A DNA stretch of 32,000 nucleotides from Micrococcus luteus NCTC 2665 (GCF_000023205.1 NC_012803.1:1980001-2012000), one strand, 5' to 3'; numbered from the stretch's first letter, positions 7-14,855 are shown. Made by a program: numbers and translations. Notes: generated from the letters alone by a model not told the origin.

Positions 7-936
7 ATGTCGACCGCGAGGTTCTGCCAGCTCTTCGACATGCCCGAGCGGACCTGGCGCCGCTGGCAGGCCAAGGCCCGCACCGGGACGGCGGTGAAGG
101 GACCGTGGCCGCAACCGGGACGGCAGGCCGCCAGGGAACTGGTGGTCAAGCACGCGCTGGCCCATCCGGCGTGGGGGCATCGGAAGATCTGGGCGATGGT
201 CCGCCACGACGGGCATGTGGTTTCCGAGGCGACCGTGCTGCGGATCCTGCGCGACGAGGGGCTGATTCTGCCCGCGCAGTACCAACGGGAGCGACGGAAG
301 CTGGCCGAGCGGCGCAAGGCCGCGTTCGCCACCGAGCCCTCAGGCCCGAACCAAGTCTGGCAGCTGGACTTCAGCGAGTTCGAGACCACCACCGGAGGGA
401 CCTGGCGGCTGGCCGGGTGCCGGGACTACTGGTCCAAGTACGAGCACCCCTTCCACGTTTCGCCCACCGGGAACCAGCACGACGCGATCGACGCGATCGA
501 GTTGGCCCTGGCCGACTACGAGGCCATGTTCGGTCACCCGCTGGTCGAGGCCTGCCCGGTCGATCCCGAGACCGGTGAGCTGTTGCCCGTGGTGACCATC
601 GTGACGGACAACGGCGGGCCGTTCCGGTCCTTCCGCTTCGAGTCCTTCATCGCCGCCCACCCCGAGCTACACCACGTGCGCACCCGAGTGAAGACCCCGG
701 GGCAGAACGGGTCCCGTGAACGCGGCTTCGGCACGCTGAAGTACGAACGGCTCTACCTGGACGAGATCGACGACGCGATCGTGCTCGCCGAGCGGGCCGA
801 GGACTACCGGATCGAGTACAACGAGCTCCGGCCCCACGAGGCCATCTCATGGAACCGGCCCAAGGAGGTGCACCTGGGCCTGGCCGACCCCACCACCCCG
901 ACATTCAAAACCAAGGAAATCCTGCCAACTACTTGA
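7..936 (+). CDS. DDE (rve/integrase-core) transposase with N-terminal HTH. IS481/IS3 superfamily, exact family unresolved.
   Basis: 309-aa ORF. HTH-like N-terminus (FCQLFDMPERTWRRWQ). Catalytic-core pattern PNQVWQLDFSEF ... TDNGGPFRS ... NGSRERGFGTLKYE ... YNELRPHEAI. The window starts 6 nt upstream, so the element's left end is not visible. Confidence 0.8.
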   Translation: MSTARFCQLFDMPERTWRRWQAKARTGTAVKGPWPQPGRQAARELVVKHALAHPAWGHRKIWAMVRHDGHVVSEATVLRILRDEGLILPAQYQRERRKLAERRKAAFATEPSGPNQVWQLDFSEFETTTGGTWRLAGCRDYWSKYEHPFHVSPTGNQHDAIDAIELALADYEAMFGHPLVEACPVDPETGELLPVVTIVTDNGGPFRSFRFESFIAAHPELHHVRTRVKTPGQNGSRERGFGTLKYERLYLDEIDDAIVLAERAEDYRIEYNELRPHEAISWNRPKEVHLGLADPTTPTFKTKEILPTT

Positions 937-2632: not shown

Positions 2633-3136
2633 TCACCCGGAGGTATTGGCGGACCCTGCGCTCACCGGTGGGGCGCGGCCGGGGGCTTTAGGTGCGGCTG
2701 ATGGCCAGTTGAGCCAGTGAAGGGTCCACGGGGGCCGGAAATGGGCAACCCAGGGCAGGGGTGGTGCGGTCAGTCCCCCACCAGGGCTAGGCAGGAGGGC
2801 CCGGGAGGCCAAGTGGGACACGACAGGTGCCTTGGTCAGGGCCGAGGCGCAGGTATCGTCCACGGCCTCCAGGGCACAGACCGGCAGCCCGGGGTCGGCT
2901 GCCTCATCCCCGGCAGGCTCGGCCGGGAGCACGACCTCGGCCACCATGCCGGCCGGACCGATGGCCCCCGGCCCGAGGTGATGAACAGTTGTGGCGGCGG
3001 CCGTACCGGTGGCGGCCCAAGCCGCGCTGGTGCCCGTACCAGCGTGCATCCCGAGCAGGCCCAGGATCAACACGAGGGTGCCCAGAACGGTTCGAAGGGC
3101 GGGCCAGCCGGACAGGGGGCGGCGGTAGGAGGTCAC
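2633..3136 (-). CDS. Small membrane-anchored protein, DUF6153-like
   Basis: 167-aa ORF. N-terminal TM ending LLGMH, spaced Cys residues and a Pro-rich tail, resembling DUF6153 proteins as I recall them. The GTG start overlaps the upstream stop (GTGA at 3133-3136). Family assignment is from memory only. Confidence 0.5.
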   Translation of the reverse strand: MTSYRRPLSGWPALRTVLGTLVLILGLLGMHAGTGTSAAWAATGTAAATTVHHLGPGAIGPAGMVAEVVLPAEPAGDEAADPGLPVCALEAVDDTCASALTKAPVVSHLASRALLPSPGGGLTAPPLPWVAHFRPPWTLHWLNWPSAAPKAPGRAPPVSAGSANTSG

Positions 3137-3999
3137 AGCAGCGATTCGGTGGTGTTCCCGCCGTCCGTGGTGGACAGCACGGTCGAGCCGACGACCAGCA
3201 GTGCTTCGGTCCGCCCGTCGTCGGTGATGCCGGCGCCCAGGGCGGAGGCCGTGCCGACCGGGCGGTCGCTGGCGGTCCAGGTGTCGCCGGCGTCGGTGCT
3301 GGTCAGCAGGTGTCCCTCGGTGCCGGCGCCCACGGCGGTGGTGTCATCGGCCCAGGCGACCAGGTGCATCAGCTGGGGGGTGTCCAGGGTGGTCCAGGTC
3401 GCGCCGTGGTCGGTCGAGCGCAACATGCCGGTTTCGGTGGTGGCCAGCACGGTCCCGGTTTGGGGGGAGATCGCCAGCGATGCCGGGGCGACGGGGATCT
3501 CAAGGCTCTGCCAGGTGAGGCCGTCGGTGCTGGCGCGCAGTTGCCCATCGAAGCCGAGGACCCCGTTCGGGCCGGCGGCCAGGGCGTGGAAATCGGATGC
3601 GCCGCCGCGGGAGAGCACCGTCCAGCTCTGGCCCCGGTCGGTGGACTCGGCCAGGCCCAGCGGCTCGGGCAGGTCGGTGCGCGGCGCGGGGTGACCCGAG
3701 GCCAGGTAGCGGCCCTCGGGAGTCAGGGTGAAACCCATGAAGTCCACGACCGGACCGACCTGGGTCAGCTCCCCGTCCTGGAGCCGGAACAGGCCCTGGT
3801 GGGTGGCCAGCAGCACCTCACCGGACTCGGGGTCCCGGGTGAGGGCATGGACGTGGGTGATGGCCGTGCCGGTGCCCTGCGTGCCGGTGCCGGCCGCCGG
3901 GGATGTCGCGGGGTTCGGCGCGGCGCAGGCGGTGAGGGTGCCAGCGCCGAGCAGGGTCAGCCCGCCGGCGATCAGGGTTCTGCGGGTCAGGGGGGTCAT
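3133..3999 (-). CDS. Tat-lipoprotein beta-propeller (BNR/Asp-box, F510_1955/Ycf48-like) of unknown function
   Basis: I chose the internal ATG at 3997-3999 with RBS GGAAAGG, not the 440-aa track ORF. MTPLTRRTLIAGG..LTAC gives a Tat motif plus lipobox. Repeated S/T-x-D-x-G-x-T/S-W units are present (STDRGQSW, STDGLTW, STDHGATW, STDAGDTW). Confidence 0.8.
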   Translation of the reverse strand: MTPLTRRTLIAGGLTLLGAGTLTACAAPNPATSPAAGTGTQGTGTAITHVHALTRDPESGEVLLATHQGLFRLQDGELTQVGPVVDFMGFTLTPEGRYLASGHPAPRTDLPEPLGLAESTDRGQSWTVLSRGGASDFHALAAGPNGVLGFDGQLRASTDGLTWQSLEIPVAPASLAISPQTGTVLATTETGMLRSTDHGATWTTLDTPQLMHLVAWADDTTAVGAGTEGHLLTSTDAGDTWTASDRPVGTASALGAGITDDGRTEALLVVGSTVLSTTDGGNTTESLL

Positions 4000-4079: not shown

Positions 4080-4099
4080 TGAAGATTCGATGAAGATTC
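4080..4099. promoter_or_regulatory. CopR-type response-regulator box (9-bp direct repeat, 11-bp period) in the divergent promoter
   Basis: TGAAGATTC GA TGAAGATTC, two perfect 9-mers. It lies 81 bp upstream of the 3999 (-) start and 57 bp upstream of the 4156 (+) start. It matches the TGAAGATTTnnTGAAGATTT motif I recall for C. glutamicum CopR. Confidence 0.65.
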
Positions 4100-4155: not shown

Positions 4156-4875
4156 ATGAACTCTGGCACTGGGACTGACACTGGGACTGGTCCGGCGGCC
4201 GGCCGGGTGTTGGTGGTCGATGACGAGAAGCCGCTGGCGCGCATGGTGGCCACCTACCTGGAGCGGGCCGGCTACGAGGTGGCTCTCACCCACACCGGCC
4301 CGGCCGCAGTGCAGGCCGCCCGGGTTCACGAGCCCGACGTGATGGTCCTGGACCTGGGCCTGCCCGGGCTGGACGGGATCGAGGTGTGCCGGCGGGTGCG
4401 GGCCTTCTCCGAGTGCTATGTGCTGATGCTCACCGCCCGCGGCGATGAGCACCACCGGTTGGAGGGATTGGCGGTGGGGGCCGATGACTACATCACCAAA
4501 CCCTTCAGCGTCCGGGAGCTGGTCGCCCGGGTGGGGGCGGTCATGCGCCGGCCGCGCACAACGGTGTCAGCCCCCGAACCGGAACGGGTCTGCGGTGACC
4601 TGGTCATCGACCTGGCCGCCCACGAGGCCCGCGTGTCGGGCCAGGTGGTGCAACTGACGCGCACGGAGTTCGACCTGCTGGCCGCCTTGTCGGGGCGCCC
4701 GCACCAGGCCTTCTCCCGGCGCCAGCTGATCGATATCGTCTGGGACCCGGCCTGGGTGGGCGATGAACGGCTCGTGGACGTGCACATCAAGAACCTGCGC
4801 CGCAAGCTCGACGCGAACCCGGCCCGCTATATCGACACCGTCCGCGGGGTCGGCTACCGGATGGCGGAGCAATGA
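4156..4875 (+). CDS. copR: OmpR-family response regulator (CopR-like)
   Basis: Receiver motifs VVDDEKPL, VMVLDLGLPGLDG and YITKPF. Winged helix LTRTEFDLLAAL..VHIKNLRRKL..TVRGVGYRM. I chose ATG 4156 because the alternative ATG 4090 lies inside the repeat box. The stop overlaps the kinase start (ATGA). Confidence 0.85.
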   Translation: MNSGTGTDTGTGPAAGRVLVVDDEKPLARMVATYLERAGYEVALTHTGPAAVQAARVHEPDVMVLDLGLPGLDGIEVCRRVRAFSECYVLMLTARGDEHHRLEGLAVGADDYITKPFSVRELVARVGAVMRRPRTTVSAPEPERVCGDLVIDLAAHEARVSGQVVQLTRTEFDLLAALSGRPHQAFSRRQLIDIVWDPAWVGDERLVDVHIKNLRRKLDANPARYIDTVRGVGYRMAEQ

Positions 4876-6041
4876 CCGGCCGGCGGCGCTACCAAGGATT
4901 AGCGGCCCGGTTCTTCCTCGCCCAGCTGCTGGTGGTGGGGGCCAGCGTGCTGGCCGCGGTGGTGGTGGCCTCCCTGGCCGGCCCACCACTGTTCCACGAG
5001 CACCTGGAACAGGCCGGGGCCGGACACGATGCAGCCCAGATGCTGCACGTGGAGCAGGCCTACCGGGACACCAATTTCTGGACCCTGGGCGTGGCCCTGG
5101 CCACGGCCTTGATCTGTTGTCTGGCATTGACCTGGCATGTCGCCCGCCGGATCCAGAGTCCGATCAACGCCCTGACCCAGGCGGCCAAGGCCATGGCCGG
5201 TGGACGGTACGACACCCGCGTGCCGGCCATGGGCGCCGGCACCGAGGTGGAGGAGCTGGCAGGGTCTTTCAACACCATGGCCGCACGGCTTCAGCGCACC
5301 GAGGACACCCGTCGACGGATGCTCTCGGACCTGGCCCACGAGCTGCGCACCCCCGTCTCCGTGCTGACCGTCTACCACGAGGCCCTGCAAGACGGGGTGT
5401 CCCACTGGGACGAGCCCACCGGTGAGCTGATGGGCGAGCAGCTGGCCCGGTTGACCCGGCTGGTGGAGGACATCAACGACGTCTCCCGCGTCGAGGAGGG
5501 CCGGATCGAACTGGACCGCAGCCCCCAAGGGGTCAGCGGGCTGCTGCATGCCGCGACCGAGGCCCACAAGGAGGCCTACGCCACCAAGGGCGTGGCCCTG
5601 ACCATGGACGCCGATCCAGGCCTGGCCGTGGACGTGGACCGCCAGCGCATGGGCCAGGTCCTGGGCAACCTGCTCACCAACGCCCTGCGCCACACCCCGG
5701 CCGGGGGCCGGGTCACCCTCGAGGCCCGACAAAGCCCGTCCGGGGTCACGCTCAGCGTCACCGACACCGGGGAGGGGATCTCTCCCGAGCACCTGCCGCA
5801 CGTCTTCGAACGCTTCTACCGCGGGGACACCGCCCGCGACCGTGACCACGGCGGCTCCGGGGTCGGCCTGGCCATCTCCCGAGCTCTCATCCAGACCCAC
5901 GGCGGCACCCTGAGCGCCACCTCCACCACGGCCGGGGCGACGTTCACCATCGACCTGCCCACCAAGCAGCCCCCCGACCAGCCCACCTACCGGCGCACCC
6001 GTTTATCCACCGTGAACACCGGCGCTCCACCCCTTGAATGA
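4872..6041 (+). CDS. copS: Sensor histidine kinase (2 TM, short His/Met-containing outer loop, HAMP, HisKA, HATPase), CopS-like
   Basis: H-box HELRTP. N-box LGNLLTNALRHT. G-boxes DTGEGI and GGSGVGLAIS. Two TM segments flank the loop PPLFHEHLEQAGAGHDAAQMLHVEQAYRDTNF. Confidence 0.85.
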   Translation: MTGRRRYQGLAARFFLAQLLVVGASVLAAVVVASLAGPPLFHEHLEQAGAGHDAAQMLHVEQAYRDTNFWTLGVALATALICCLALTWHVARRIQSPINALTQAAKAMAGGRYDTRVPAMGAGTEVEELAGSFNTMAARLQRTEDTRRRMLSDLAHELRTPVSVLTVYHEALQDGVSHWDEPTGELMGEQLARLTRLVEDINDVSRVEEGRIELDRSPQGVSGLLHAATEAHKEAYATKGVALTMDADPGLAVDVDRQRMGQVLGNLLTNALRHTPAGGRVTLEARQSPSGVTLSVTDTGEGISPEHLPHVFERFYRGDTARDRDHGGSGVGLAISRALIQTHGGTLSATSTTAGATFTIDLPTKQPPDQPTYRRTRLSTVNTGAPPLE

Positions 6042-6112: not shown

Positions 6113-6442
6113 ATGACCGAATCCGCCCGCACCCCGCTGCCGGGGGCCACCAACGGCTGCTCGTGCTGCGCCCCAGCCGCCGACGCCACCGCCCCCGCCG
6201 GGCACCAGAGTGCCGACCCAACCGGGACGAGCGCCGGCGACGCGACCTACCAGGTGGAGGGCATGACCTGCGGACACTGCGTGGGCTCCGTCGCCGAGGC
6301 CGTGAGCGCCCTGGACGGGGTGGACGATGTCCGGGTCGAACTGGTCGCCGGCGGGGCCTCCCCCGTCACCGTGACCGGGCCCGCCTCCGCGGACTCCGTG
6401 CGGACGGCCATCGAAGCGGCCGGCTACCGCGTCCGGATCTAA
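6113..6442 (+). CDS. copZ: Heavy-metal-associated (HMA) copper chaperone with a 45-aa N-terminal extension
   Basis: The motif GMTCGHC sits in a beta-alpha-beta-beta-alpha-beta-sized C-terminal domain. The N-terminal extension contains CSCC. RBS GAAGGAGA. Confidence 0.85.
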   Translation: MTESARTPLPGATNGCSCCAPAADATAPAGHQSADPTGTSAGDATYQVEGMTCGHCVGSVAEAVSALDGVDDVRVELVAGGASPVTVTGPASADSVRTAIEAAGYRVRI

Positions 6443-6517: not shown

Positions 6518-8755
6518 ATGAGCACCCCGCACCACCACGATCACCCCACCGACCAGACCGCCGAACACCCAGACCCGAACCCCCACGCCGGCCACGCCAA
6601 CCACACCGACCATGCCGCCCACCACCCCGCGGACGCGGCCACCCACGGGCAGGCCATGCCCCAGGGCCACGCCCACTCGGCCCTGGACGAGGACCACCAG
6701 GTCCACGACCACGGTCAGCACGCCGGGCATTCCACCGCGATGTTCAAGAACCGGTTCTGGGTCTCACTGGTGCTCTCCATCCCGGTGGTGTTCTTCAGCC
6801 ACATGGTCGGGCAGCTGCTGGGCTACCACGTCCCCGAGTTCCCGGGCTCGGCGTGGATCGCCCCGGTGCTGGGCACCGTGATCTACCTCTATGGCGGCAT
6901 GCCCTTCCTGAAGGGCGGGCTGACCGAGTTGCGCGCCCGCCAGCCGGGGATGATGCTGCTGATCGCGATGGCCATCACGGTGGCCTTCGTCGCCTCCTGG
7001 GTCACGACCCTGGGCATCGGGGACCTGATGCTGGACTTCTGGTGGGAGCTGGCGCTGCTGGTGGTCATCATGCTGCTGGGCCACTGGATGGAGATGCGCG
7101 CCCTGGGCGCGGCCTCCTCCGCCTTGGACGCGCTGGCGGCGCTGCTGCCGGAGGAGGCCGAGAAGGTCGTGGACGGTGACACCATCACCGTGCCGATCAC
7201 CGAGTTGGCCGTGGGCGATGTGGTGCTAGTGCGGGCCGGGGCCCGGGTGCCGGCCGACGGGACCATCCTCGAGGGCGCCGCGGAGTTCGACGAGGCGATG
7301 ATCACCGGGGAGTCGAAGCCTGTGCTGCGCCAGGCCGGGGACACGGTGGTCGCTGGGACCGTGGCCACCGACAACACCGTGCGGGTGAAGGTGGCCGCCG
7401 TCGGGACCGACACGACCCTGGCCGGGATCCAGCGGATGGTCGCCGACGCCCAGGAGTCCTCCTCCCGGGCCCAGGCGTTGGCGGACCGGGCCGCGGCCCT
7501 GCTGTTCTGGTTCGCCCTGGTTGCGGCGATCATCACCGCGATCGTGTGGACCGCGATCGGCCAGCCCACCGACGCGGTCACCCGCACCGTGACCGTGCTG
7601 GTCATCGCCTGCCCGCACGCCCTGGGCCTGGCCATCCCGCTGGTGATCGCCCTCTCCACGGAGAAGGCCGCCAAGTCCGGGGTCCTGATCAAGGACCGGA
7701 TGGCCCTGGAGCGGATGCGGACCATCGACGTGGTCCTGTTCGACAAGACCGGCACCCTGACCGAGGGCGCCCACGCCGTCACCGGTGTCGCCGCGGCGCC
7801 CGGCATTTCCGAGGCCGAGCTGTTGGCCTACGCCGCCGCGGCCGAGGCTGACAGCGAGCACCCGGTGGCCCGGGCCATCGTCACCGCCGCCGGGCAGCAC
7901 CCGCAGGCCAGCACGTTGCGCAAGCGCGGCACGGACTTCAGTGCTGCCATGGGCCGCGGGGTGCGCGCCACCGTGGACGGCTCCGAGATCCTTGTCGGCG
8001 GGCCGAACATGCTGCGCGAGCTTAACCTGACCATGCCGGCGGAGATCACTGAGCACACCGCCTCCTGGACCGCGCGCGGGGCCGGGGTGTTGCATGTGGT
8101 CCGCGACGGGTCCGTTATCGGCGCGGTCGCCGTGGAGGACAAGATCCGCCCCGAGTCCCGGGCCGCCGTGGCCGCCCTGCACGCCCGCGGCATCAAGGTC
8201 GCGATGATCACCGGCGATGCCCGCCAGGTCGCCGAGGCCGTCGGGGCGGACCTGGGCATCGACGAGGTCTTCGCCGAGGTCCTCCCCCAGGACAAGGACA
8301 CCAAGGTCACCGAGTTGCAGTCCCGGGGACTGTCCGTGGCCATGGTGGGCGACGGCGTCAACGACGCCCCGGCGCTGGCGCGGGCCGAGGTCGGCATCGC
8401 CATCGGCGCCGGCACCGACGTGGCCATGGAGTCCGCCGGCGTTGTGCTGGCCAGCAACGACCCCCGCGCGGTGCTGTCGATGATCGAGCTCTCCCAGGCC
8501 AGCTACACCAAGATGATCCAGAACCTGGTGTGGGCCACCGGCTACAACGTGCTCGCCGTGCCGCTGGCCGCCGGCGTGCTCGCCCCGATCGGGTTCGTGC
8601 TCTCCCCCGCGGTGGGCGCGATCCTGATGTCCGCCTCCACCATCGTGGTCGCCCTCAACGCCCAACTGCTGCGCCGGATCAACCTGGACCCGGGCCACCT
8701 GGCCCCCCTCGGCGCCCCCCGGCCGGAGGCTGCCCTTCAACCCGCGACCTCCTGA
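6518..8755 (+). CDS. copB: Copper-exporting P1B-type ATPase, CopB-like (His-rich N-terminus, CPH motif)
   Basis: His-rich N-terminus MSTPHHHDHP...HAGHANHTDHAAHH. Motifs TGES, CPH (VIACPHALG), DKTGTLT, SEHP and GDGVNDAPAL. No N-terminal CxxC HMA domain. Confidence 0.93.
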   Translation: MSTPHHHDHPTDQTAEHPDPNPHAGHANHTDHAAHHPADAATHGQAMPQGHAHSALDEDHQVHDHGQHAGHSTAMFKNRFWVSLVLSIPVVFFSHMVGQLLGYHVPEFPGSAWIAPVLGTVIYLYGGMPFLKGGLTELRARQPGMMLLIAMAITVAFVASWVTTLGIGDLMLDFWWELALLVVIMLLGHWMEMRALGAASSALDALAALLPEEAEKVVDGDTITVPITELAVGDVVLVRAGARVPADGTILEGAAEFDEAMITGESKPVLRQAGDTVVAGTVATDNTVRVKVAAVGTDTTLAGIQRMVADAQESSSRAQALADRAAALLFWFALVAAIITAIVWTAIGQPTDAVTRTVTVLVIACPHALGLAIPLVIALSTEKAAKSGVLIKDRMALERMRTIDVVLFDKTGTLTEGAHAVTGVAAAPGISEAELLAYAAAAEADSEHPVARAIVTAAGQHPQASTLRKRGTDFSAAMGRGVRATVDGSEILVGGPNMLRELNLTMPAEITEHTASWTARGAGVLHVVRDGSVIGAVAVEDKIRPESRAAVAALHARGIKVAMITGDARQVAEAVGADLGIDEVFAEVLPQDKDTKVTELQSRGLSVAMVGDGVNDAPALARAEVGIAIGAGTDVAMESAGVVLASNDPRAVLSMIELSQASYTKMIQNLVWATGYNVLAVPLAAGVLAPIGFVLSPAVGAILMSASTIVVALNAQLLRRINLDPGHLAPLGAPRPEAALQPATS

Positions 8756-8814: not shown

Positions 8815-9498
8815 ATGAAACGCACCATGACGCTGACCGCCCTGGCCCTGGCCTCCGCCCTGACCTTGACCGCCTGCGGCACCGGCGCCCAGGACGAGAA
8901 CGCCGGCGCTGAGGCCTCGGCCACTGCGACCAGCTCCGCCCCGGCCGCCACCCCTGCGGCCACGGCCACCGCGACACCGTCCACCACGGCGACCGGTTCG
9001 GCTGAGGAGGTCTCCGCCGAGCACAACGACGCGGACGTGATGTTCGCCCAAATGATGATCCCGCACCACCAGCAGGCCGTTGAGATGAGCGAGATGCTGC
9101 TGGCCAAGGATGACGTCCCGGCGGAGGTGGCCGCGTTCGCCCAGAAGGTCATCGACGCCCAGGGGCCGGAGATCGAGCGCATGAACTCCATGCTCACCGC
9201 CTGGGGCCAAGACCCCGTGGACACGGACGGCATGGACGGTATGGAGGGCATGGACCACGGCGGGATGTCCGGGATGATGTCCGAGGAGGACATGACCGCC
9301 CTCGACCAGGCCCAGGGCACCGAGGCCGCCCGGTTGTACCTGGAGCAGATGACCGCCCACCACAAGGGCGCCGTGGACATGGCCAAGGACGAGGCCAAGG
9401 ACGGCCAGAACCCGCAGGCCGTGCAGCTCGCCGAGCAGGTCATCGCCGACCAGGAGGCCGAGATCACCGAAATGCAACAGATGCTCGACAAGCTCTGA
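8815..9498 (+). CDS. DUF305-family lipoprotein
   Basis: Internal ATG 8815 with RBS GGAAGGA. Signal peptide plus lipobox LTAC. Duplicated DUF305 helices (DVMFAQMMIPHHQQAVEMSE and YLEQMTAHHKGAVDMAK). Met-rich linker DGMDGMEGMDHGGMSGMM. Confidence 0.85.
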   Translation: MKRTMTLTALALASALTLTACGTGAQDENAGAEASATATSSAPAATPAATATATPSTTATGSAEEVSAEHNDADVMFAQMMIPHHQQAVEMSEMLLAKDDVPAEVAAFAQKVIDAQGPEIERMNSMLTAWGQDPVDTDGMDGMEGMDHGGMSGMMSEEDMTALDQAQGTEAARLYLEQMTAHHKGAVDMAKDEAKDGQNPQAVQLAEQVIADQEAEITEMQQMLDKL

Positions 9499-9586
9499 GC
9501 ACCGTCGTCCGCTGCGGGCATCCGGTGAGACGCGGCTGGCGATAGACCCCGAAACCGGAACGGGTCCTCCAGGAAAGGAGACGAGC

Positions 9587-10642
9587 ATGCAGGACAAGAT
9601 CAAGGTCGCGGTGAACGGGTACGGGGTCATCGGCAAACGCGTCGCCGACGCGGTCCGGGCCCAGGAGGACATGGCGCTGGTCGGAGTCAGTGACGTCATC
9701 GCTGACTACCGGATCGCGACTGCGGCCGGGAAGGGTATCCCCGTCTACGCCTCTACCGAGCAGGCCCTACCGGTGATGGCGGATGCCGGCCTTCCCGTCG
9801 TCGGAGGCCTGCACGACCTGCTCGAGAACGTTGACGTCGTGGTGGACTGCACCCCGGCCCAGGTGGGCGCCGGCAACCTGGAGCTCTACCGTGCCCACGG
9901 GGTCAAATCCGTGTTCCAGGGCGGGGAGAAGCACGATCTCACCGGCCACTCCTTCGTCGCCCACGCCAACTACGCCAACGCCCTGGGCCGGGACAGCACC
10001 CGGGTGGTGTCCTGCAATACCACCGCCACCGTCCGGGCCCTTACCGCGCTGAAGGACGTCGGACTGCTGTCCAAGGCCCGGGGGGTGCTCATCCGCCGGG
10101 CCACCGATCCGTGGGAATCGGACCATTCCGGGATCATGAACACCATCGTCCCCGAGGGCCGAATCCCCAGCCATCAGGGGCCCGACGCCCAGTCGGTGGT
10201 CCCGGACCTGGACGTGGTCACCATGGCCGCCAAGGGAGCCCACACTCAGAACCACCTGCACTACTGGACGATCGAGCTCACCCGCCCGGCCGAGAAGCAG
10301 GAGGTGTTGGAGGCGTTCCGGGCGATGCCGCGGATTGCCTTCGTCCGGCGCTCGGACGGCGTCGTGGCGGTCAATAGCACCGTGGAACTCATGGAGGACC
10401 TGGGCCGGCCCCGGGGTGATATGTATGAGGTGGCCCTCTGGGAAGACATCCTCACCGTGGACGGCAACGAGCTGTACTACACCTACACGGTGGACAACCA
10501 GGCGATCGTCGTCCCCGAGAACATCGACGCGATCCGGGCCCTCACCGGAACCGTCGACGACGGCGGCGAGTCCATCCGGCGCACCGACCGCGCCTTGGGG
10601 GTGCGCCAGGACTTCGTGCGCTCCTCGGTGGCTGCCCGTTGA
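9587..10642 (+). CDS. Type II (archaeal-type) phosphorylating glyceraldehyde-3-phosphate dehydrogenase
   Basis: INGYGVIGKRVADA Rossmann N-terminus. VDCTP..FQGGEKH. Active-site RVVSCNTT. IPSHQGPD. VPENIDAIRA. Collinear with archaeal GAPDH (for example Methanothermus) as I recall it. RBS GGAAAGGAG. Confidence 0.88.
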   Translation: MQDKIKVAVNGYGVIGKRVADAVRAQEDMALVGVSDVIADYRIATAAGKGIPVYASTEQALPVMADAGLPVVGGLHDLLENVDVVVDCTPAQVGAGNLELYRAHGVKSVFQGGEKHDLTGHSFVAHANYANALGRDSTRVVSCNTTATVRALTALKDVGLLSKARGVLIRRATDPWESDHSGIMNTIVPEGRIPSHQGPDAQSVVPDLDVVTMAAKGAHTQNHLHYWTIELTRPAEKQEVLEAFRAMPRIAFVRRSDGVVAVNSTVELMEDLGRPRGDMYEVALWEDILTVDGNELYYTYTVDNQAIVVPENIDAIRALTGTVDDGGESIRRTDRALGVRQDFVRSSVAAR

Positions 10643-10748
10643 ACTGCGCGGCAGACGCCGCTGAGGCGGTGCCCGGCCCCAGGAATGGGGGGTGGTCGGA
10701 CACCGCTTCGGCGGCCGCGGACTACCGCAGCGGTCCTATGGCCTCCGG

Positions 10749-11633
10749 TCAGGTGCGAGAGGCCGTCGCGATCGCGTTGATGGCCTCATCCAACACCGCA
10801 TTGAACTGCGCTGGGCTCTGGGCCGTACTCAGCCCTTCGGTCAGGGCGCGGGAGAAGCTGGCGATCACGCCGTGGTTGCGGGCCAGCAGGGTGGTGGCCT
10901 GGGCCCGGGTATAGCCGCCCGACAGGGCCAGGACGCGGATCACTCGGGGATGGTCCACGAACTCGCGGTAGGAGTCCGCCCGCTCCGGCAGCGTCACTTT
11001 GAGGATGACCGACTGGTCGTCTCCGAGCTTGTCCAGTTGGGCGAGGATTGCCGCCTTGAGCTGGTCCTCCACCTCGGCCTTGCGGGGGCTGCGGATATCC
11101 ACCTCGGGCTCGATGATGGGCACCAGCCCGGTAACGAGGATCTGACGGGCGAGCCCGAACTGCTGCTCCACGACGGAGCCCACCCCGTCCCCGGGCAGCT
11201 TGATGACCGAGCGCATCTTCGTCCCGAACATGTGCTTTTCGACGGCTCGAGACAGTAAGTCATCCAGGTGCGGGATGGGTTTCATGAGCTGGGCGCCTTG
11301 CTGTTCCGGGGCCAAGCCCTGGTCGATTTTGAGGAAGGGCACGATGCCTTTGCTGTTCCACAGGTAGTCGCCCGTGGGGGAACCCTCCACCTGGCGGTTC
11401 ATTGTGTTCTCGAACAGGATGGCCCCCATGACGCGCTCACCGTCGAAGCTGGGGCTGGTGATGATACGTGTGCGCACCTGGTGTACCAGGTCGAACATCT
11501 CCTCTGGGCCGGAGTAGGCATCCTTGTCGATCCCGTAGAGGTGCAAGGCCGCCGGGGTGCTGCCCCCGCTCTGGTCCAGCGCCGCGACGAATCCGGCACC
11601 GTTCCTGACCCTCTGATACTTCTCCGAGTCCAT
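10749..11633 (-). CDS. Class I (Schiff-base, metal-independent) fructose-bisphosphate aldolase, Staphylococcus Fda-like
   Basis: Internal ATG 11633 with RBS GGAAGG. Long collinear matches to S. aureus Fda as I recall it: GFVAALDQSGGSTP, VRTRIITSPSF, ILFENTM, VPFLKIDQGL, QLMKPI, FGTKMRS, VVEQQF, GLVPIIEPEV, RVLALSGGY, IASFSRAL. Confidence 0.88.
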   Translation of the reverse strand: MDSEKYQRVRNGAGFVAALDQSGGSTPAALHLYGIDKDAYSGPEEMFDLVHQVRTRIITSPSFDGERVMGAILFENTMNRQVEGSPTGDYLWNSKGIVPFLKIDQGLAPEQQGAQLMKPIPHLDDLLSRAVEKHMFGTKMRSVIKLPGDGVGSVVEQQFGLARQILVTGLVPIIEPEVDIRSPRKAEVEDQLKAAILAQLDKLGDDQSVILKVTLPERADSYREFVDHPRVIRVLALSGGYTRAQATTLLARNHGVIASFSRALTEGLSTAQSPAQFNAVLDEAINAIATASRT

Positions 11634-11729
11634 GGGAGCCTTCCGCGGCGAGGGAGCACGGTGGTCCGGGTTCCCTGCGCGCGTCATGGACGACTGGCCG
11701 CCCTCAAGGGGGAACGGTCATCAGCAGGC

Positions 11730-12140
11730 TCAACCCAGGGTGACGAGCAGGTCCGCGCAGGCCTGCTCACACCGGCGGCAGGCCTCGGCACACACCTTGC
11801 AGTGCTCGTGCATCTGGGCGTGGCTCTCGCATTCGTCCCCGCACGTCTTGCAGGCGGCCCGGCAGGCCTCGAGCAGGGCGCGGGTGGTCTCGACGTTGTT
11901 GCCGGTCTGCCGGGACAGCATCCGGCCTGTGGCGGCGCACACATCGGCGCAGTCCAGGTTCAACCGGATGCACTGCCTCAGGTCGGCCACCATGTCCTCG
12001 GCCAGGCAGGCGTCCGCGCAGGCCGTGCAGGTCTGGGCGCACTCGAAGCAGGCCTGGATGCACTCGGCCAGCTTCTGCCGGTCGATGTTGCCCACATTCT
12101 TTGGGTAGGTGTCCAGCATGGCGCTCACGTGATGGGTCAT
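11730..12140 (-). CDS. Cys-rich four-helix-bundle copper-binding protein (DUF326, Csp3-type, no signal peptide)
   Basis: Internal ATG 12140 with RBS GAAGGAG. 136 aa with 18 Cys counted, in CxxxC/CxxC helical spacing (CIQACFECAQTCTACADAC ... CRAACKTCGDEC ... CKVCAEACRRCEQAC). Confidence 0.85.
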   Translation of the reverse strand: MTHHVSAMLDTYPKNVGNIDRQKLAECIQACFECAQTCTACADACLAEDMVADLRQCIRLNLDCADVCAATGRMLSRQTGNNVETTRALLEACRAACKTCGDECESHAQMHEHCKVCAEACRRCEQACADLLVTLG

Positions 12141-12242: not shown

Positions 12243-12262
12243 TGAAGGTTCCGTGAAGATCG
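12243..12262. promoter_or_regulatory. Second, degenerate CopR-like direct repeat upstream of the Csp3 gene
   Basis: TGAAGGTTC CG TGAAGATCG has the same 9+2+9 architecture as 4080-4099 (8/9 and 7/9 matches to TGAAGATTC). It lies 103-122 bp upstream of the 12140 (-) start. Confidence 0.4.
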
Positions 12263-12431: not shown

Positions 12432-13382
12432 TTATGCGATCCGACCAGGGGCGTCGAGGCCGCCGGTGCAGGCCGCCCCGGGCTCAGGCGCGTCGGGGGA
12501 CTGCCAGTACTCGGCCACGAACTGCTCGATCCGTTCATCCTCCGGGGAATCCACCGCCACCTGCGCCTGCCAGGCCGAAAGCACGATGGGCGAATCCAGG
12601 CCCTCGTAGGGGGCCAGGACGACATAGGCGGCCGGTAGGGCCGTCCGCAGGGCATCGACTTGCTCCTGTGAGAGCGCCTCGGAATCGTAGGCGACCCAGG
12701 CGGCACCGTGCTCCAAAGCGTGCACGGCATTCTCGTTGGGTACCGGTTCGGTGTAGACCCCACAGTTGAGCCAGGCGCTGGCATGATCGCCACCCACCGG
12801 CGGCGACTGCTCGTAGTCCACAGGGGTGCTCACGTGGTTAGCGCTGAGCCCCTCGAAGGTCTGCAGCCCGGCGATCTCAATGTCCTCCCGAGCCTGGGGC
12901 GGAGGATTCTGAATCACGGCGAGCGTCACCAGCCCGCCGACCACGGCGATGGCGGTGAGCGCTCCCGCTCCGACCAGAACCTTCCGCCGACGTTCAGCCT
13001 TGGCTTCCGGGTCTGCCGTGACCCGGTCCAGACGGGCGAGGCGGTTGATCCGGCAGCGCACGAGCACGGCATGGACGGTGGAGGCCGGCATCCTGAGTTC
13101 TCCGGCGATCTGTGCCGGCCCCAGACGTCGGCGCCATCGGGCGGCCACGATCTGTTTCACCACCGCCTGCGGTGTTCTGGTCGGCATCGTGGACGGCCGG
13201 CTGGACCGGTCTGCCATCCCTGCAGGTCCCTCGGCCCGGAAGCGTGTGGCCCATTTGCGTGCGGTGGGTGGGGAGACCATGAACATCTTGGCCGCGGTGG
13301 CGACCGGCCAGTGCTCCTCGACGATGAGCTTGGCCAGGCGTAGGCGGGCGCGAGGGGTCAGGGCGGCGTTAGCGTGGGACAT
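12432..13382 (-). CDS. Chimeric ORF: IS481-family transposase N-terminal HTH region fused in frame to the TM and DUF3105 domain of a 5'-truncated gene
   Basis: The N-terminal ~122 aa (MSHANAALTPRARLRLAKLIVEEHWPV...MPASTVHAVLVRCRINRLARLDRVT) match IS481 transposase N-termini. After ~13016 the sequence switches to EAKAERRRK + TM (VLVGAGALTAIAVVGGLVTLAVI) + DUF3105-like domain (PPVGGDH, HALEHGAAWV). I saw no in-frame ATG or GTG between the junction and the TM. ATG 13382 has RBS AGAAGG. Confidence 0.6.
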   Translation of the reverse strand: MSHANAALTPRARLRLAKLIVEEHWPVATAAKMFMVSPPTARKWATRFRAEGPAGMADRSSRPSTMPTRTPQAVVKQIVAARWRRRLGPAQIAGELRMPASTVHAVLVRCRINRLARLDRVTADPEAKAERRRKVLVGAGALTAIAVVGGLVTLAVIQNPPPQAREDIEIAGLQTFEGLSANHVSTPVDYEQSPPVGGDHASAWLNCGVYTEPVPNENAVHALEHGAAWVAYDSEALSQEQVDALRTALPAAYVVLAPYEGLDSPIVLSAWQAQVAVDSPEDERIEQFVAEYWQSPDAPEPGAACTGGLDAPGRIA

Positions 13383-13421: not shown

Positions 13422-14855
13422 GGGCGTGTCAGATGGTCTGTGTAAGCCGTACCGAGAGGAACGGTAAGAATCATGACCATGACCGACGAGAAGAACCCAG
13501 GCGAGCCCTCGGGCCAGGACCTGGTCGAGCAGCTGAAAGCCTCAGGGCAGCTTGATGCCCTGTTCGCGCAGATCGACGCGGGCGGCGTCGAGCTCACCGG
13601 TGACGGCGGGTTCGTGCCCGCGCTGGTCAAGGCCGCGCTCGAGCGGGGCCTGCAGGCCGAGCTGACCAGCCATCTGGGCTACGAGAAGGGCTCGAGCGAG
13701 GCGCTGAAGCACGCCAACTCCCGCAACGGGACCACCCCGAAGACCGTGGAGTCCGAGGTCGGGCCGATCGAGCTGGACGTCCCGCGAGACCGGGGCGGGT
13801 CGTTCACCCCGCGCCTGGTGCCCAAGGGCCAGCGGCGCCTCGGGGGCCTGGATGACATGATCATCAGCCTCTATGCCGGCGGAATGACGATCCGGGACAT
13901 CCAGCACCACCTGGCCTCCACGATCGGCACGGACCTGTCGCACGAGACGATCTCCAACATCACCGACGCCGTGAGCGAAGAGGTCCTGGCGTGGCAGTCG
14001 CGGCCGCTGGAGGAGTTCTATCCGGTGATCTATCTCGACGCAATCCGGATCAAGATCCGAGAGAACAGCCAGGTCCTCAACCGTGCCGCCTACATCGCCG
14101 TCGGCGTGGACCTCGAGGGCATCAAGCACGTGCTGGGGATCTGGGTCCAGGACACCGAGGGCTCGGCGTTCTGGGCCCACGTCTGCGCCGATCTCGCCAA
14201 CCGGGGCGTGCAGGACGTGCTGATCGTGTGCTGCGACGGGCTCAAGGGCCTGCCGGAGGCGATCGAGGCGACGTGGCCGGACTCGATGGTCCAGACCTGC
14301 GTGGTTCACCTGATCCGGGCCGCGATGCGGTTCGTGGCCTACCAGGACCGCAAGAAGGTCGCCGCCGCGCTGAAGCCGATCTACACTGCCCCCAACGAAG
14401 AGACCGCGAGGAAGGCGCTGGCCGAGTTCGAGGCCTCCGAGCTCGGCACGAAGTACCCGTCTGCAGCCGCGACCTGGGCGAACTCCTGGGAGCGGTTCAT
14501 CCCGTTCCTGCAGTTCCCACCCATGCTCCGCAAGGTCATCTACACGACCAACAGCATCGAGTCGCTGAACTTCCAGCTACGGAAGGTGACCAAGAACCGC
14601 GGCCACTTCCCCTCGACCGAGGCGGCGGTGAAGCTGCTCTGGCTGGCGATCTGCAACATCGAAGACAAACGCGCCGCCGAACGCGCTCGGGACCGGGGCA
14701 AACCCGCCGGCCAGCGCAAAGCCCAGGGCCGGCTCGTCGAAGGTCAGGCCGTCACGAACTGGAAGCAGGCCCTCGCCCAGCTCGCCGCGGCCTACCCCGA
14801 CCGGATCAACCCCTACCTGTGACCACCCCGCTTACACAGACAAGTTGACACGCCC
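13422..14855 (+). mobile_element. Intact IS256-family insertion sequence (1434 bp)
   Basis: Single 449-aa mutator-type transposase gene. Terminal inverted repeats GGGCGTGTCAGATGGTCTGTGTAAGC (13422-13447) and the reverse complement of 14830-14855, GGGCGTGTCAACTTGTCTGTGTAAGC (22/26 identical). Flanked by the direct repeat ACAACTC. Confidence 0.85.
13473..14822 (+). CDS. IS256-family (mutator-type) transposase
   Basis: 449 aa. Typical IS256 features: ELTSHLGYEKG, GSFTPRLVPKGQRR, ISLYAGGMTIRDI, YLDAIRIKIRE, VCCDGLKGLPEAI, QTCVVHLIR, TTNSIESLN. Confidence 0.93.
   Translation: MTMTDEKNPGEPSGQDLVEQLKASGQLDALFAQIDAGGVELTGDGGFVPALVKAALERGLQAELTSHLGYEKGSSEALKHANSRNGTTPKTVESEVGPIELDVPRDRGGSFTPRLVPKGQRRLGGLDDMIISLYAGGMTIRDIQHHLASTIGTDLSHETISNITDAVSEEVLAWQSRPLEEFYPVIYLDAIRIKIRENSQVLNRAAYIAVGVDLEGIKHVLGIWVQDTEGSAFWAHVCADLANRGVQDVLIVCCDGLKGLPEAIEATWPDSMVQTCVVHLIRAAMRFVAYQDRKKVAAALKPIYTAPNEETARKALAEFEASELGTKYPSAAATWANSWERFIPFLQFPPMLRKVIYTTNSIESLNFQLRKVTKNRGHFPSTEAAVKLLWLAICNIEDKRAAERARDRGKPAGQRKAQGRLVEGQAVTNWKQALAQLAAAYPDRINPYL

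Follow-up and report, generated by a model that had tools for sequence, protein, structure and literature searches.

A type II GAPDH and a class I aldolase in a mobile copper-resistance island of Micrococcus luteus: a copper-linked metabolic module

The DNA described here is a 32,000-nucleotide (32-kb) stretch of the Micrococcus luteus NCTC 2665 genome (the window), which carries a copper-resistance island with a GC content of 0.66–0.73 over positions 1–17000, compared with 0.72–0.79 from 17000 onward (1-kb windows). Transposases of the IS3 and IS256 families stand on either side of the copper block: an IS3-family gene (7..936, + strand; Pfam HTH_21, rve, rve_3) forms the island's left edge within the window and an IS256/Mutator-family gene (13473..14822, +; Pfam Transposase_mut, E 4e-116) lies to its right. 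The block opens with a multicopper oxidase gene (MCO; 955..2520, −; Pfam Cu-oxidase_3/_2/Cu-oxidase, E 1e-42), which also occurs in related islands and whose operon includes a gene for an F510_1955-family BNR/sortilin-like protein (3133..3999, −; NCBIfam NF045728, 240 bits; start set at the ATG at 3999, which has a Shine-Dalgarno sequence) with a 285-aa homolog at the equivalent position in another locus (L092). The + strand then carries the response regulator gene copR (4156..4875, in-frame ATG at 4156, with tblastn matches to CopR at the same position in related loci), the sensor histidine kinase gene copS (4872..6041; Pfam HAMP, HisKA, HATPase_c), a copZ-like gene for a heavy-metal-associated protein (6113..6442; 51% identity by tblastn to the HMA protein of plasmid pCmarinum1), copB (6518..8755; Pfam E1-E2_ATPase, Hydrolase), which encodes a P1B-3-type copper ATPase with the CPH motif (VIACPHALGL) and a His-rich N-terminus (19 His within the first 90 residues), and a gene for a DUF305/CopM-family protein (8815..9498; Pfam DUF305, E 2e-48; NCBIfam CopM, 96 bits).

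This string continues with a gene for a phosphorylating type II (archaeal-type) glyceraldehyde-3-phosphate dehydrogenase (GAPDH-II; 9587..10642, +), which meets tail to tail a gene for a class I fructose-bisphosphate aldolase (FBA; 10749..11633, −). The latter follows, on the − strand, the gene for a Csp3-type four-helix-bundle copper storage protein (11730..12140, −; Pfam DUF326, with a TIGR04401 Csp1-family match under cutoff), which starts at the ATG at 12140 with a Shine-Dalgarno sequence, heads the Csp3-FBA string and has homologs in related plasmids annotated as "four-helix bundle copper-binding protein." Beyond it lies a DUF3105 gene (~12432..13000, −; Pfam DUF3105, E 3e-45, residues 195–319 of ORF 12432–13418), the reading frame of which continues into an IS481-like HTH segment to 13418 (LZ_Tnp_IS481/HTH, residues 14–119). 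The two metabolic genes are members of an IS-flanked, lower-GC copper island together with CopRS, CopZ, CopB, DUF305, Csp3 and the multicopper oxidase. An earlier, sequence-only reading had placed them convergently in a copper block, with an 88-bp gap after the DUF305 gene and a 96-bp gap after the Csp3 gene; profile and structure matches bear out the identities and positions, both gaps are exact, and no triose-phosphate isomerase, also reported as absent, was seen among the scanned island ORFs.

The GAPDH-II protein (351 aa) scores well over the cutoffs of the equivalog models NF003251 "type II glyceraldehyde-3-phosphate dehydrogenase" (457 bits; cutoff 185) and TIGR01546 (346 bits; cutoff 233), and it aligns end to end with the archaeal structures 2czc (Pyrococcus), 1cf2 (Methanothermus), 2yyy (Methanocaldococcus) and 1b7g (Sulfolobus) at E 3e-84 to 4e-70. 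It has in common with these enzymes the fold family, the length, the catalytic Cys motif (VSCNTT), the catalytic His motif (PSHQGPD) and the phosphate-binding motif RRAxDP (RRATDP), all aligned to 2czc. In contrast to the archaeal enzymes, the bacterial clade is horizontally mobile, lies in metal islands and has Asp (G-V-S-D-V-I-A-D) at the position of archaeal Lys33. The four solved archaeal enzymes carry this Lys within G-V-S-K-T-R-P, and the K-T/R-x-P motif that follows their beta-2 is lacking in the bacterial clade. The Asp is present in all 120 closest homologs and in all plasmid copies; it marks a distinct bacterial subclade ("Asp-type") and is no argument against membership of the fold family.

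The aldolase (294 aa), assigned to the metal-independent Schiff-base class, matches NF003784/PRK05377 "fructose bisphosphate aldolase" (456 bits; cutoff 392) and the class I aldolase structure 2iqt from P. gingivalis (E 1e-103, residues 1–291). Its LKIDQG (K-x-D-x-G) and IIEPEV (EPE) segments align to active-site motifs of a class I aldolase from plants (7b2n). For the presumed Schiff-base Lys (V-I-L-K-V-T-L-P), 2iqt (L-K-I-T-I-P) is the sole alignment partner, the canonical class I alignment ending before that residue. The protein has no cysteine. Cysteine counts fail to separate island from non-island aldolases, no island-specific cysteine loss was found, and the FbaB aldolases and phosphoketolases of GAPDH-II islands are not Cys-poor. 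The PRK05377 family is not copper-specific: it is also chromosomal in fast-growing mycobacteria, the Mycolicibacterium copies adjoining genes for universal stress proteins (Usp) without copper genes, and it is to GAPDH-II that the broad copper linkage belongs. For the same reason the statement that Actinobacteria rely on a class II aldolase holds as a generalization only. The S. aureus class I aldolase Fda belongs to this family. Published work reports that Fda rises 2.2–2.3-fold under copper.

Both gene strings are headed by a candidate binding site for CopR. In C. glutamicum the CopR site was defined by EMSA as the direct repeat TGAAGATTTnnTGAAGATTT, apparently the single binding site in that genome (PMC3140484). 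The window has exactly two matches, compared with none in 100 shuffles: box 1 (TGAAGATTCgaTGAAGATTC; 4080..4099, +) lies 56 bp upstream of the copR ATG and matches the C. glutamicum site, and box 2 (TGAAGGTTCcgTGAAGATCG; 12243..12262, +) lies ~100 bp upstream of the Csp3 ATG, before Csp3-FBA. A search of 34 actinobacterial loci, 652 kb in all, gave 28 exact matches to TGAAG-N6-TGAAG, 26 of them directly upstream of copR, Csp3 or a GH65/beta-phosphoglucomutase (GH65/bPGM) gene; the other two (loci L029 and L031) are ~2 kb from the nearest mapped gene. The box before copR is kept in Corynebacterium and Micrococcus loci, that at the equivalent position before Csp3 in Micrococcus, Corynebacterium and Brevibacterium loci, and a box precedes GH65/bPGM in Sediminivirga and B. 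litoralis. These conserved boxes predict copper-dependent transcription of both gene strings.

The box search of the window found none immediately before GAPDH-II, so CopR control of this gene would depend on read-through from copR. The DUF305-GAPDH spacer (9499–9586, 88 bp; z 0.07) and the Csp3-FBA spacer (11634–11729, 96 bp; z −0.8) are unstructured, with no terminator-like structure by fold z-scores. A stable hairpin directly after copB (8756–8773, z −3.4) means that read-through into DUF305-GAPDH is not assured. Between the convergent GAPDH and aldolase ends, a long GC-rich hairpin (10657..10715; MFE fold, ~23 paired positions, 15-bp outer stem; z-scores −1.7 for the + and −2.5 for the − strand) is likely a bidirectional terminator.

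The arrangement recurs in islands of ~10 actinobacterial genera. The order MCO-(CueP)-copRS-copZ-copB-DUF305-GAPDH-II, convergent with FBA-(GH65/bPGM-XFP)-Csp3, is found on the mobilizable Corynebacterium plasmids pCmarinum1 and pCETAM, and the same MCO-to-Csp3 order in islands of Micrococcus, Citricoccus, Corynebacterium, Brevibacterium, Sediminivirga and Nesterenkonia. Another M. luteus strain has a diverged copy of the island (aldolase 71% identical) with unchanged gene order. Some proteins of a related plasmid have WP accessions identical to those of widely shared Corynebacterium proteins. Many related islands also encode phosphoketolase and a GH65/bPGM fusion, situated in these fuller versions between Csp3 and the aldolase, and the window is a reduced form of this larger module. 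The proposal of a two-gene metabolic arm was right in assigning the pair to the island and too narrow as to the extent of the module. No description of the arrangement was found in the literature searched, in agreement with the impression on first reading that it was new. A close described relative is the C. glutamicum CopRS regulon (cg3281–cg3289; Schelder et al., 2011; PMC3140484), which shares with the island the two-component system, the direct-repeat box and the divergent MCO and copR-copS-HMA-copB strings. No metabolic genes are among the reported genes of that copper region, whereas the island has a copR string extended by DUF305 and GAPDH-II and a second CopR box heading a Csp3-(XFP-GH65/bPGM)-aldolase string.

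Copper pumps adjoin GAPDH-II in at least six bacterial phyla. One or more copper marker families occur within 10 kb in 74 of 83 GAPDH-II loci and in 39 of 44 genus-level groups. With identical scoring, copper marker genes were found within 10 kb at 67/81 GAPDH-II loci vs. 1/80 control loci centered on purD and, among loci of at least 15 kb, at 54/61 vs. 1/22 (Fisher p 9e-13). The loci are not independent phylogenetically, and the counts are inflated by horizontal transfer of whole islands. The co-occurrence with copper genes anticipated from the single locus is strong and spans phyla, and the two genes are accessory isozymes of the copper island rather than chance neighbors. Of 82 loci, 59 have a P1B ATPase family member, on the median 2.5 kb away and overwhelmingly of the CPH-motif, His-rich CopB type. 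Copper regulators adjoin GAPDH-II elsewhere as well: CueR together with a CsoR-like protein in Agrobacterium, and in Meiothermus a protein that is CsoR-like. The aldolase partner differs between lineages: a PRK05377-type class I enzyme in Actinomycetota, an FbaB/PRK09250-type enzyme directly downstream of GAPDH-II in ~9 Bacteroidota loci and a short DhnA-type enzyme in Deinococcota. The pairing of GAPDH-II with these non-orthologous class I aldolase families is convergent.

Precedents for parts of this picture come from several known systems. Metal-independent isozymes replace metal-dependent ones in S. aureus (GpmA vs. the Mn-dependent GpmI under calprotectin), in Zur-regulated zinc-free paralogs and in the case of FumC vs. 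the Fe-S enzyme FumA. The logic is shared: disturbed metal homeostasis brings in, for a central step of metabolism, a differently built enzyme that does without the metal cofactor at risk. The known cases belong to chromosomal core regulons and are called up by metal starvation or by oxidative stress, whereas the island is mobile and its proposed trigger is metal excess. The GAPDH-ArsJ arsenate system, which Chen, Yoshinaga, Garbinski and Rosen are said to have described in 2016, reportedly has a metabolic enzyme on which resistance depends within a metal(loid)-resistance operon: a type I GAPDH makes 1-arseno-3-phosphoglycerate that is exported by the MFS pump ArsJ. The island likewise has a GAPDH gene in a metal-resistance setting. 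Membership of the GAPDH-ArsJ system was rejected: the island enzyme is type II, and no MFS or ars genes adjoin GAPDH-II in the window. The MFS genes that adjoin some Bacteroidota GAPDH-II genes score best as Tet-like efflux proteins, not as ArsJ. Copper is not a phosphate analog, so the arsenate mechanism cannot transfer.

The reading preferred here, to which we give about even chances, is that a horizontally mobile copper-resistance island carries GAPDH-II and the aldolase as functional cargo, most likely under CopRS control, and that the pair supplies a copper-stress glycolytic node. GAPDH-II would be transcribed as the last gene of the copR-copS-copZ-copB-DUF305 string from the CopR box at its head, and the aldolase behind Csp3 from the string headed by box 2. 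Copper excess would then bring about a second, differently built node from fructose bisphosphate through triose phosphate to 1,3-bisphosphoglycerate, in which a Schiff-base aldolase without cofactor is joined by a type II GAPDH that has a single Cys motif and is probably NAD-linked, both presumably active. Such a node would sustain carbon and ATP flux, in either direction, once Cu(I) has hit the housekeeping Zn-dependent class II aldolase and type I GAPDH by mismetallation or thiol poisoning. In fuller islands phosphoketolase and GH65/bPGM may in addition feed disaccharide carbon to triose phosphate and acetyl phosphate. Type I GAPDH is an established copper target in Staphylococcus and Streptococcus: copper inhibits GapA of S. 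aureus, as the sequence-only reading had stated (PMC6350627), and published work extends this to GapA of S. pyogenes. The catalytic Cys and His, presumed points of copper attack, are both retained in the type II enzyme, a caveat rightly raised at the outset with regard to the catalytic Cys (SCNTT), and a "copper-proof" step, with island enzymes less sensitive to copper than their housekeeping counterparts, is what we infer. Against the reading, one bacterial type II GAPDH, that of P. thermosuccinogenes and the sole one for which an assay was found in the literature, was inactive with NAD or NADP, and according to the same paper there is no functional evidence for class II GAPDH in bacteria (PMC6543838).

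Another possibility is that GAPDH-II, together with class I aldolase, phosphoketolase, GH65/bPGM, Usp, acetate kinase or the arginine deiminase pathway, forms a substrate-level-phosphorylation survival kit for low-oxygen or dormancy-like stress that shares accessory islands with metal pumps without answering to copper as such. In some proteobacterial loci the genes around GAPDH-II are of fermentation, Usp or hypoxia type, and the ATPase has the CPD motif or is a HAD-IC one in place of CopB, so a wider role as energy back-up under stress has to be considered. GAPDH-II accompanies phosphoketolase, acetate kinase, Prs and UbiB on an Acidovorax plasmid with no copper pump within 9 kb, arcABC on a Roseovarius plasmid, PFOR, alcohol dehydrogenase, Usp and a HAD-IC P-type ATPase on a Phenylobacterium plasmid, and PfkB on a Methylocystis plasmid; Usp genes turn up often in the loci of Bacteroidota and Rhodococcus, and Usp, as noted, adjoins the chromosomal Mycolicibacterium aldolase. 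Gene classes similar to those combined in the B. cenocepacia lxa locus (PMC3721108) and the M. tuberculosis DosR regulon (Usp, cation P-type ATPase, sugar kinases, acetate kinase, metal-dependent RNase) surround GAPDH-II in several Proteobacteria and Bacteroidota. The lxa locus itself, however, has no GAPDH, aldolase or phosphoketolase (PMC3721108), and the commonest GAPDH-II neighbor across five phyla is the CPH/His-rich CopB, together with MCO, Csp3, DUF305 and CusB. CopRS-headed strings with CopR boxes contain the genes both in the window and in its actinobacterial relatives, without Usp or fermentation genes, none of which was detected in the island by a Pfam scan of the window ORFs. Membership of a DosR/lxa-type low-oxygen locus was rejected for the window, the island containing none of the requisite genes (multiple Usp with fermentation, PHA or ribonucleotide-reductase genes and an Anr/DosR-type regulator). 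We regard the survival-kit explanation as unlikely. It and the copper reading are not mutually exclusive, because Cu(I) toxicity is greatest at low oxygen.

Roles outside glycolysis appear less probable still: GAPDH-II might oxidize another aldehyde or sugar phosphate (such as erythrose-4-phosphate from phosphoketolase) or a toxic aldehyde, or act as a Cu(I) sink or chaperone beside CopB. S. aureus GapA has been reported to serve as a major store for excess copper in the cytoplasm, and GAPDH-II often has no aldolase nearby (Agrococcus, Kocuria, Anaerolineae and many Bacteroidota). Against this, VSCNTT is retained in 119 of 120 homologs together with the His motif and RRAxDP, the equivalog scores are high, and the partners found (three class I FBP aldolase families, PfkA, GlgP, phosphoketolase and GH65/bPGM) point to sugar-phosphate metabolism.

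It is very doubtful that both genes are passengers that a successful copper island took up a single time, with no selected link to copper. The island is IS-rich and mobile, one ancestral island could underlie much of the actinobacterial signal, and some Corynebacterium aldolase copies look truncated. Yet the GAPDH ORF is intact, with its catalytic motifs preserved, in 119 of 120 homologs, CopR boxes are retained before the metabolic operon, and the linkage persists across phyla despite differences in gene order, ATPase position, aldolase family and regulators (CopRS, CueR/CsoR, AraC).

The cofactor bears on a further proposal, that an NADP-linked type II enzyme makes NADPH for thiol-redox repair in copper stress. 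Archaeal type II GAPDHs prefer NADP, homologs are annotated by JGI as "GAPDH (NAD(P))," and a gnd-like 6-phosphogluconate dehydrogenase gene lies near GAPDH-II in Rhodococcus. Where beta-2 ends in an acidic residue, the 2'-phosphate of NADP is classically kept out, and archaeal Lys33 is the NADP-binding residue; the invariant Asp in its place predicts use of NAD over NADP by the bacterial clade. This suggests an NAD-linked enzyme, fitting a glycolytic role, and leaves NADPH supply a very slim prospect.

That the pair are simply the host's own gap and fba, near copper genes by chance, is hardly credible even with the window as the host sequence inspected, given their position in a lower-GC, IS-flanked block that is plasmid-borne in Corynebacterium and exists in two diverged versions in different M. 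luteus strains, the rarity of close relatives (450 of 185,579 species genomes scanned) and the type I gap-pgk-tpi operon and class II fba that Micrococcales generally carry.

The locus represents a real and apparently undescribed copper-linked metabolic module. A broader and more tentative proposal, which we hold to be possible but somewhat improbable, is that the mobile Asp-type GAPDH-II is a pan-bacterial, dedicated copper-stress isozyme that forms, with whatever class I aldolase the lineage has available and often with phosphoketolase and GH65/bPGM, a copper-regulated carbon bypass on CopB-type islands. If true, bacterial type II GAPDH would gain its first physiological role, and a metal-excess island would for the first time be seen to supply its own toxicity-resistant core metabolism. 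The copper linkage is the first clue to the function of the "archaeal-type" GAPDH in bacteria.

The window DNA is high-GC actinobacterial, and its GAPDH is 99% identical to those of near-identical loci in Micrococcus luteus MAW843 and M. terreus. GC content is 0.66–0.73 from position 1 to about 17000 and 0.72–0.79 in the remainder, which holds purC, purD and ABC transporter genes. Both transposases, one of the IS3 family (7–936) and one of the IS256 family (13473–14822), lie inside the low-GC part, and the copper block is located between them. It comprises genes for a multicopper oxidase (MCO; 955–2520, minus strand), an F510/BNR-like protein (3133–3999, minus), CopR (4156–4875), CopS (4872–6041), an HMA/CopZ protein (6113–6442), the ATPase CopB (6518–8755), DUF305/CopM (8815–9498), a type II GAPDH (9587–10642, plus), a class I fructose-bisphosphate aldolase (10749–11633, minus), the copper storage protein Csp3/DUF326 (11730–12140, minus) and a DUF3105 protein (12432–13418, minus, opposite to the copRS string). 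This last ORF (328 aa) combines an IS481-type HTH/leucine-zipper (residues 14–119) with a DUF3105 domain (residues 195–319); an IS481 fragment has probably taken the place of the original 5' end of the DUF3105 gene. To the right of the IS256 element the lower-GC segment carries a class A penicillin-binding protein gene with transglycosylase and transpeptidase domains (14986–17169, plus), which may be extra island cargo and not a core gene.

The sequence-only reading had taken the two convergent enzymes for an archaeal-type (type II) GAPDH and a class I aldolase that follow the DUF305 and Csp3 genes after gaps of 88 and 96 bp. Both assignments are confirmed by profile and structure matches (GAPDH: NF003251, 457 bits, and archaeal structures with E down to 3e-84; aldolase: NF003784, 456 bits, and 2iqt, E 1e-103), and the two spacer lengths are exact. 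The VSCNTT, PSHQGPD and RRATDP motifs of the GAPDH are all intact, and the K-x-D-x-G and E-P-E active-site motifs of the aldolase align with plant class I aldolase.

A megablast search of window positions 9000–13000 against plasmids matched pCmarinum1 of Corynebacterium marinum and pCETAM of C. comes, both mobilizable (MOBF). By annotation, they encode Lnt, CcsB, ResB, CcdA, TlpA, MCO and CueP, followed by CopR, CopS, HMA, a copper ATPase, DUF305 and type II GAPDH; convergent with these are the fructose-bisphosphate aldolase, a GH65/beta-phosphoglucomutase (GH65/bPGM) fusion of about 1050 aa, a phosphoketolase (XFP) and Csp3, a four-helix-bundle copper-binding protein. The window module is therefore the plasmid module minus the phosphoketolase and GH65/bPGM genes. 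When 185,579 species were surveyed with one genome each, relatives of the GAPDH occurred in 450 of them, and the best 80 loci were retained with 10-kb flanks. The order DUF305-GAPDH convergent with aldolase also occurs in Micrococcus, Corynebacterium, Brevibacterium and Sediminivirga. The convergent GAPDH-aldolase pair is found with DUF305 not detected in Citricoccus and Nesterenkonia, and an ATPase-XFP-GH65/bPGM-GAPDH string takes its place in Kocuria, Arthrobacter, Rhodococcus and Pseudarthrobacter. A diverged island with the same gene order, its aldolase only 71% identical, is present in another M. luteus strain (CP059046). In five Corynebacterium/Brevibacterium loci (L009, L010, L012, L013, L016; L numbers denote related GAPDH loci from other genomes or plasmids) the aldolase ORF is 164–242 aa long or lies farther from the GAPDH, which suggests that some island copies have been truncated or have received insertions.

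The link to copper extends across phyla. Annotation-free ORF clustering of the window and 81 related loci (82 sources) gave a P1B ATPase as the commonest GAPDH neighbor family (59/82 loci, median distance 2.5 kb), present in 28 of 34 actinobacterial loci, 26 of 39 from Bacteroidota and 5 of 9 from other phyla, and MCO as the second commonest (33/82). The ATPase is overwhelmingly a His-rich CopB (P1B-3) with a CPH motif, in Actinomycetota, Chloroflexota, Terriglobia, Phycisphaerales and Bacteroidota. When MCO, DUF305, Csp3, CueP, CopZ, HMBD-CusB and the ATPase were counted as copper markers within 10 kb, at least one was found in 74/83 loci and 39/44 genus-level groups, and at least two in 43/83 loci. 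Co-occurrence with copper genes, a check proposed in the sequence-only reading, was borne out by identical tblastn criteria applied to 80 control loci with a purD relative at the center (metagenome contigs, 879 kb): 67/81 GAPDH loci were positive vs. 1/80 controls. Among loci of at least 15 kb a copper marker occurred in 54/61 GAPDH and 1/22 purD loci (Fisher p 9e-13, indicative only, given the phylogenetic non-independence of the loci). The phyla differ in gene order, regulators and partner genes, which argues against a single inherited arrangement.

Several of these neighborhoods have features of their own. The Agrobacterium gene, which is plasmid-borne, has a clear copper context (CusAB, a CsoR-like regulator, CueR, ATPase, HMA, DUF305), with clear CueR boxes at the ATPase and HMA promoters and a CsoR-like operator by the CsoR-like gene; a CueR box 5' of the GAPDH itself was rejected, the only candidate being a degenerate CCTTCC...GAAGG element. 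In Bacteroidota (L044–L082) the GAPDH belongs to a recurrent same-strand island with genes for AraC, CusB with HMBD, DUF3347, DUF5676, an ATP-cone/Mrr-like protein, a beta-CASP RNase, AAA_28, CopB, MCO, an amino-acid permease and a 227-aa protein without family match; a small K-channel-like gene ends 2 bp 5' of the GAPDH. A P1B ATPase with an unusual CPD motif in its transmembrane part (VI[AT]CPDALGL) adjoins the GAPDH in Kocuria/Arthrobacter (L022–L024, L031), Rhodococcus (L099), Roseovarius/Paracoccus (L094/L100), Methylocystis (L097) and L076/L081. Its HMA-like N-terminus lacks CxxC and has a conserved C-G-[FY]-H-C-A-G...H-[VI]-C pattern, and its gene often comes first in the ATPase-XFP-GH65/bPGM-GAPDH string.

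In the window, control by CopR is predicted. The CopR site of Corynebacterium glutamicum, defined by EMSA and mutagenesis, is TGAAGATTTnnTGAAGATTT (PMC3140484), and two candidate boxes resemble it: TGAAGATTCgaTGAAGATTC (4080–4099), 56 bp 5' of the copR ATG, and TGAAGGTTCcgTGAAGATCG (12243–12262), about 100 bp 5' of the Csp3 ATG. With up to 3 mismatches allowed, no further box was found in the window and none in 100 shuffles; a separate box just 5' of the GAPDH or DUF305 gene was accordingly rejected. The exact pattern TGAAG-N6-TGAAG has 28 matches in 34 actinobacterial loci (652 kb), 26 of them just 5' of one of three genes, namely copR, Csp3 (in Micrococcus, Corynebacterium and Brevibacterium) and GH65/bPGM (in Sediminivirga and B. 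litoralis), and two (L029, L031) about 2 kb away from the nearest mapped gene. No unusual secondary structure occurs in the DUF305-GAPDH spacer (z 0.07) or the Csp3-aldolase spacer (z -0.8), and a long hairpin (10657–10715) lies between the convergent GAPDH and aldolase ends. From the boxes, the unstructured spacers and this hairpin we infer two putative CopR-activated transcription units, one ending at the GAPDH and the other at the aldolase. Because a short, very stable hairpin (UCGCGCC-UCUU-GGCGCGA, 8756–8773, plus; z -3.4) directly follows the copB stop codon and could attenuate transcription, read-through into DUF305-GAPDH is an assumption. A consensus scan of 8700–13500 returned no sigma-70-like promoters and one chance-level terminator, such a scan being uninformative at this GC content.

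The aldolase that accompanies the GAPDH differs among phyla. An FbaB/PRK09250-type class I enzyme (NF006707, 615 bits) adjoins it in about nine Bacteroidota loci (Epilithonimonas, Kaistella, Chryseobacterium, Fluviicola, Roseivirga, Mariniphaga), directly downstream in most, and the island aldolase of Meiothermus and Trueperaceae is a short DhnA-type class I enzyme, 29–31% identical to FbaB. The Meiothermus plasmid additionally carries PfkA, GlgP and GH57 beside YHS, a CsoR-like regulator and a heavy-metal ATPase. With PRK05377-, FbaB- and DhnA-type partners in different phyla, three aldolase families assigned to the Schiff-base class accompany one GAPDH clade across three phyla. The PRK05377 family as such is not copper-specific, since chromosomal Mycolicibacterium homologs (about 70% identical to the island aldolase) have no copper neighbors; they adjoin Usp, between uvrA and uvrB.

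Other genes travel with the GAPDH. Second copies of Lnt, Lgt, CcdA/DsbD, ResB, CcsB and TlpA/redoxins, involved in envelope and cytochrome maturation, occur in GAPDH copper islands (L001/L002, 1475–7511; L083, 11719–12624 and 19341–21080; L096, 11972–14292), which suggests that islands tend more generally to bring back-ups for copper-sensitive housekeeping steps. Proteobacterial islands contain Prs, a thymidine-phosphorylase-family protein and an MBL-fold hydrolase (L093, 734–3171; L100, 1–1630). In Staphylococcus aureus both PRPP synthesis and the pentose-phosphate pathway are reported to be disturbed by copper (PMC10249872, 2023), and the extra Prs may be a further replacement enzyme. An AarF/UbiB-family kinase gene lies directly upstream of the GAPDH in Rhodococcus and Acidovorax and 1–4 kb off in Meiothermus and Pseudarthrobacter (L083, 8260–9909; L093, 7438–8970; L096, 11368–11889; L099, 7332–8909; L103, 14347–16014). 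An isoprenylcysteine carboxyl-methyltransferase-family gene and a DUF2933 gene (L095, 8246–8905; L103, 10101–11007) occur with the GAPDH on both Agrobacterium and Pseudarthrobacter plasmids, from two different phyla.

For the GAPDH family as a whole, a broader role in substrate-level energy back-up under stress is a serious rival, since on some proteobacterial plasmids the gene sits amid phosphoketolase, acetate kinase, Prs, arcABC, PFOR, PfkB, Usp and CFA synthase, gene classes that overlap low-oxygen loci such as lxa of Burkholderia cenocepacia. The adjacent ATPases in these energy-type contexts are of the CPD-motif or HAD-IC kind. The window island, in contrast, has predicted CopRS wiring and no energy-type genes. 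Although lxa shares Usp, a cation ATPase and acetate kinase with the GAPDH loci, it was rejected as a known home of the gene set, since GAPDH, aldolase and phosphoketolase are all missing from it.

A rival reading, the supply of NADPH by an NADP-linked type II enzyme, is weakened by the predicted cofactor preference. The motif G-[VI]-x-D-[VI]-x-x-D-[YW]-R is common to 120/120 closest database homologs and to all locus copies with a readable motif; among plasmid copies it was present in 10 of 11 checked, and in the remaining one it was not located. Its counterpart in the four solved archaeal enzymes is G-[VI]-x-K-[TR]-x-P, in which the lysine, Lys33 of the Methanothermus structure, is a ligand of the NADP 2'-phosphate. 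An acidic residue ending beta-2 is the classical selector of NAD over NADP. Aspartate at the Lys33 position thus predicts that the bacterial enzyme is NAD-linked and glycolysis-competent, and the motif marks a bacterial subfamily separate from the gluconeogenic enzymes of archaea. The concept is related to the GAPDH-ArsJ module and to metal-independent isozyme switching; an ArsJ-like mechanism was rejected, as no MFS gene adjoins the GAPDH in the window and those beside some of its relatives are Tet-like. Cysteine depletion was also discarded as a proxy for copper-proofing because it does not discriminate between island and non-island enzymes: island GAPDH has about 2 Cys and island aldolase 0–1, non-island Mycolicibacterium aldolases are equally Cys-poor, and island FbaB (about 5) and XFP (about 9) show no depletion.

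No account of copper islands that include type II GAPDH, class I aldolase or phosphoketolase turned up in full-text literature searches, and papers that deal with copper or comparative genomics in Arthrobacter, C. crenatum and M. luteus leave these genes unmentioned. The class I aldolase Fda of S. aureus presumably belongs to the PRK05377 family, as does the island aldolase. In that organism copper inhibits the type I GapA, as the sequence-only reading had stated, and Fda rises 2.2–2.3-fold under copper (PMC6350627). In Streptococcus pyogenes copper inactivates GapA and not GapN after the glutathione buffer is exhausted (PMC7733945). A 2019 paper describes class II GAPDH in bacteria as lacking functional evidence, the one enzyme tested giving no detected activity (PMC6543838).

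On comparative genomics and predicted regulation, the proposal that the island carries aldolase and GAPDH isozymes of alternative classes as functional cargo holds; we further infer that copper induces these enzymes, that they are active and less sensitive to copper, and that the host has core gap and fba genes. The metabolic module is well enough supported, and broad enough, to deserve experiments. It places bacterial "archaeal-type" GAPDH in a specific setting where its role can be tested, and the pairing of this GAPDH with CopB could mark copper-adapted lineages on copper surfaces, in agriculture or in host phagosomes. If truly copper-tolerant, the enzymes would be parts for engineering metal-tolerant production strains. 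Efflux, oxidation, sequestration and envelope repair are the usual explanations of copper resistance. If a conserved metabolic arm is indeed wired to copper, it would mean that mobile islands also shield intracellular copper targets via replacement enzymes, and it would suggest that the aldolase/GAPDH node is an in vivo choke point of copper poisoning, as perhaps are the PDH and pentose-phosphate steps bypassed by phosphoketolase.
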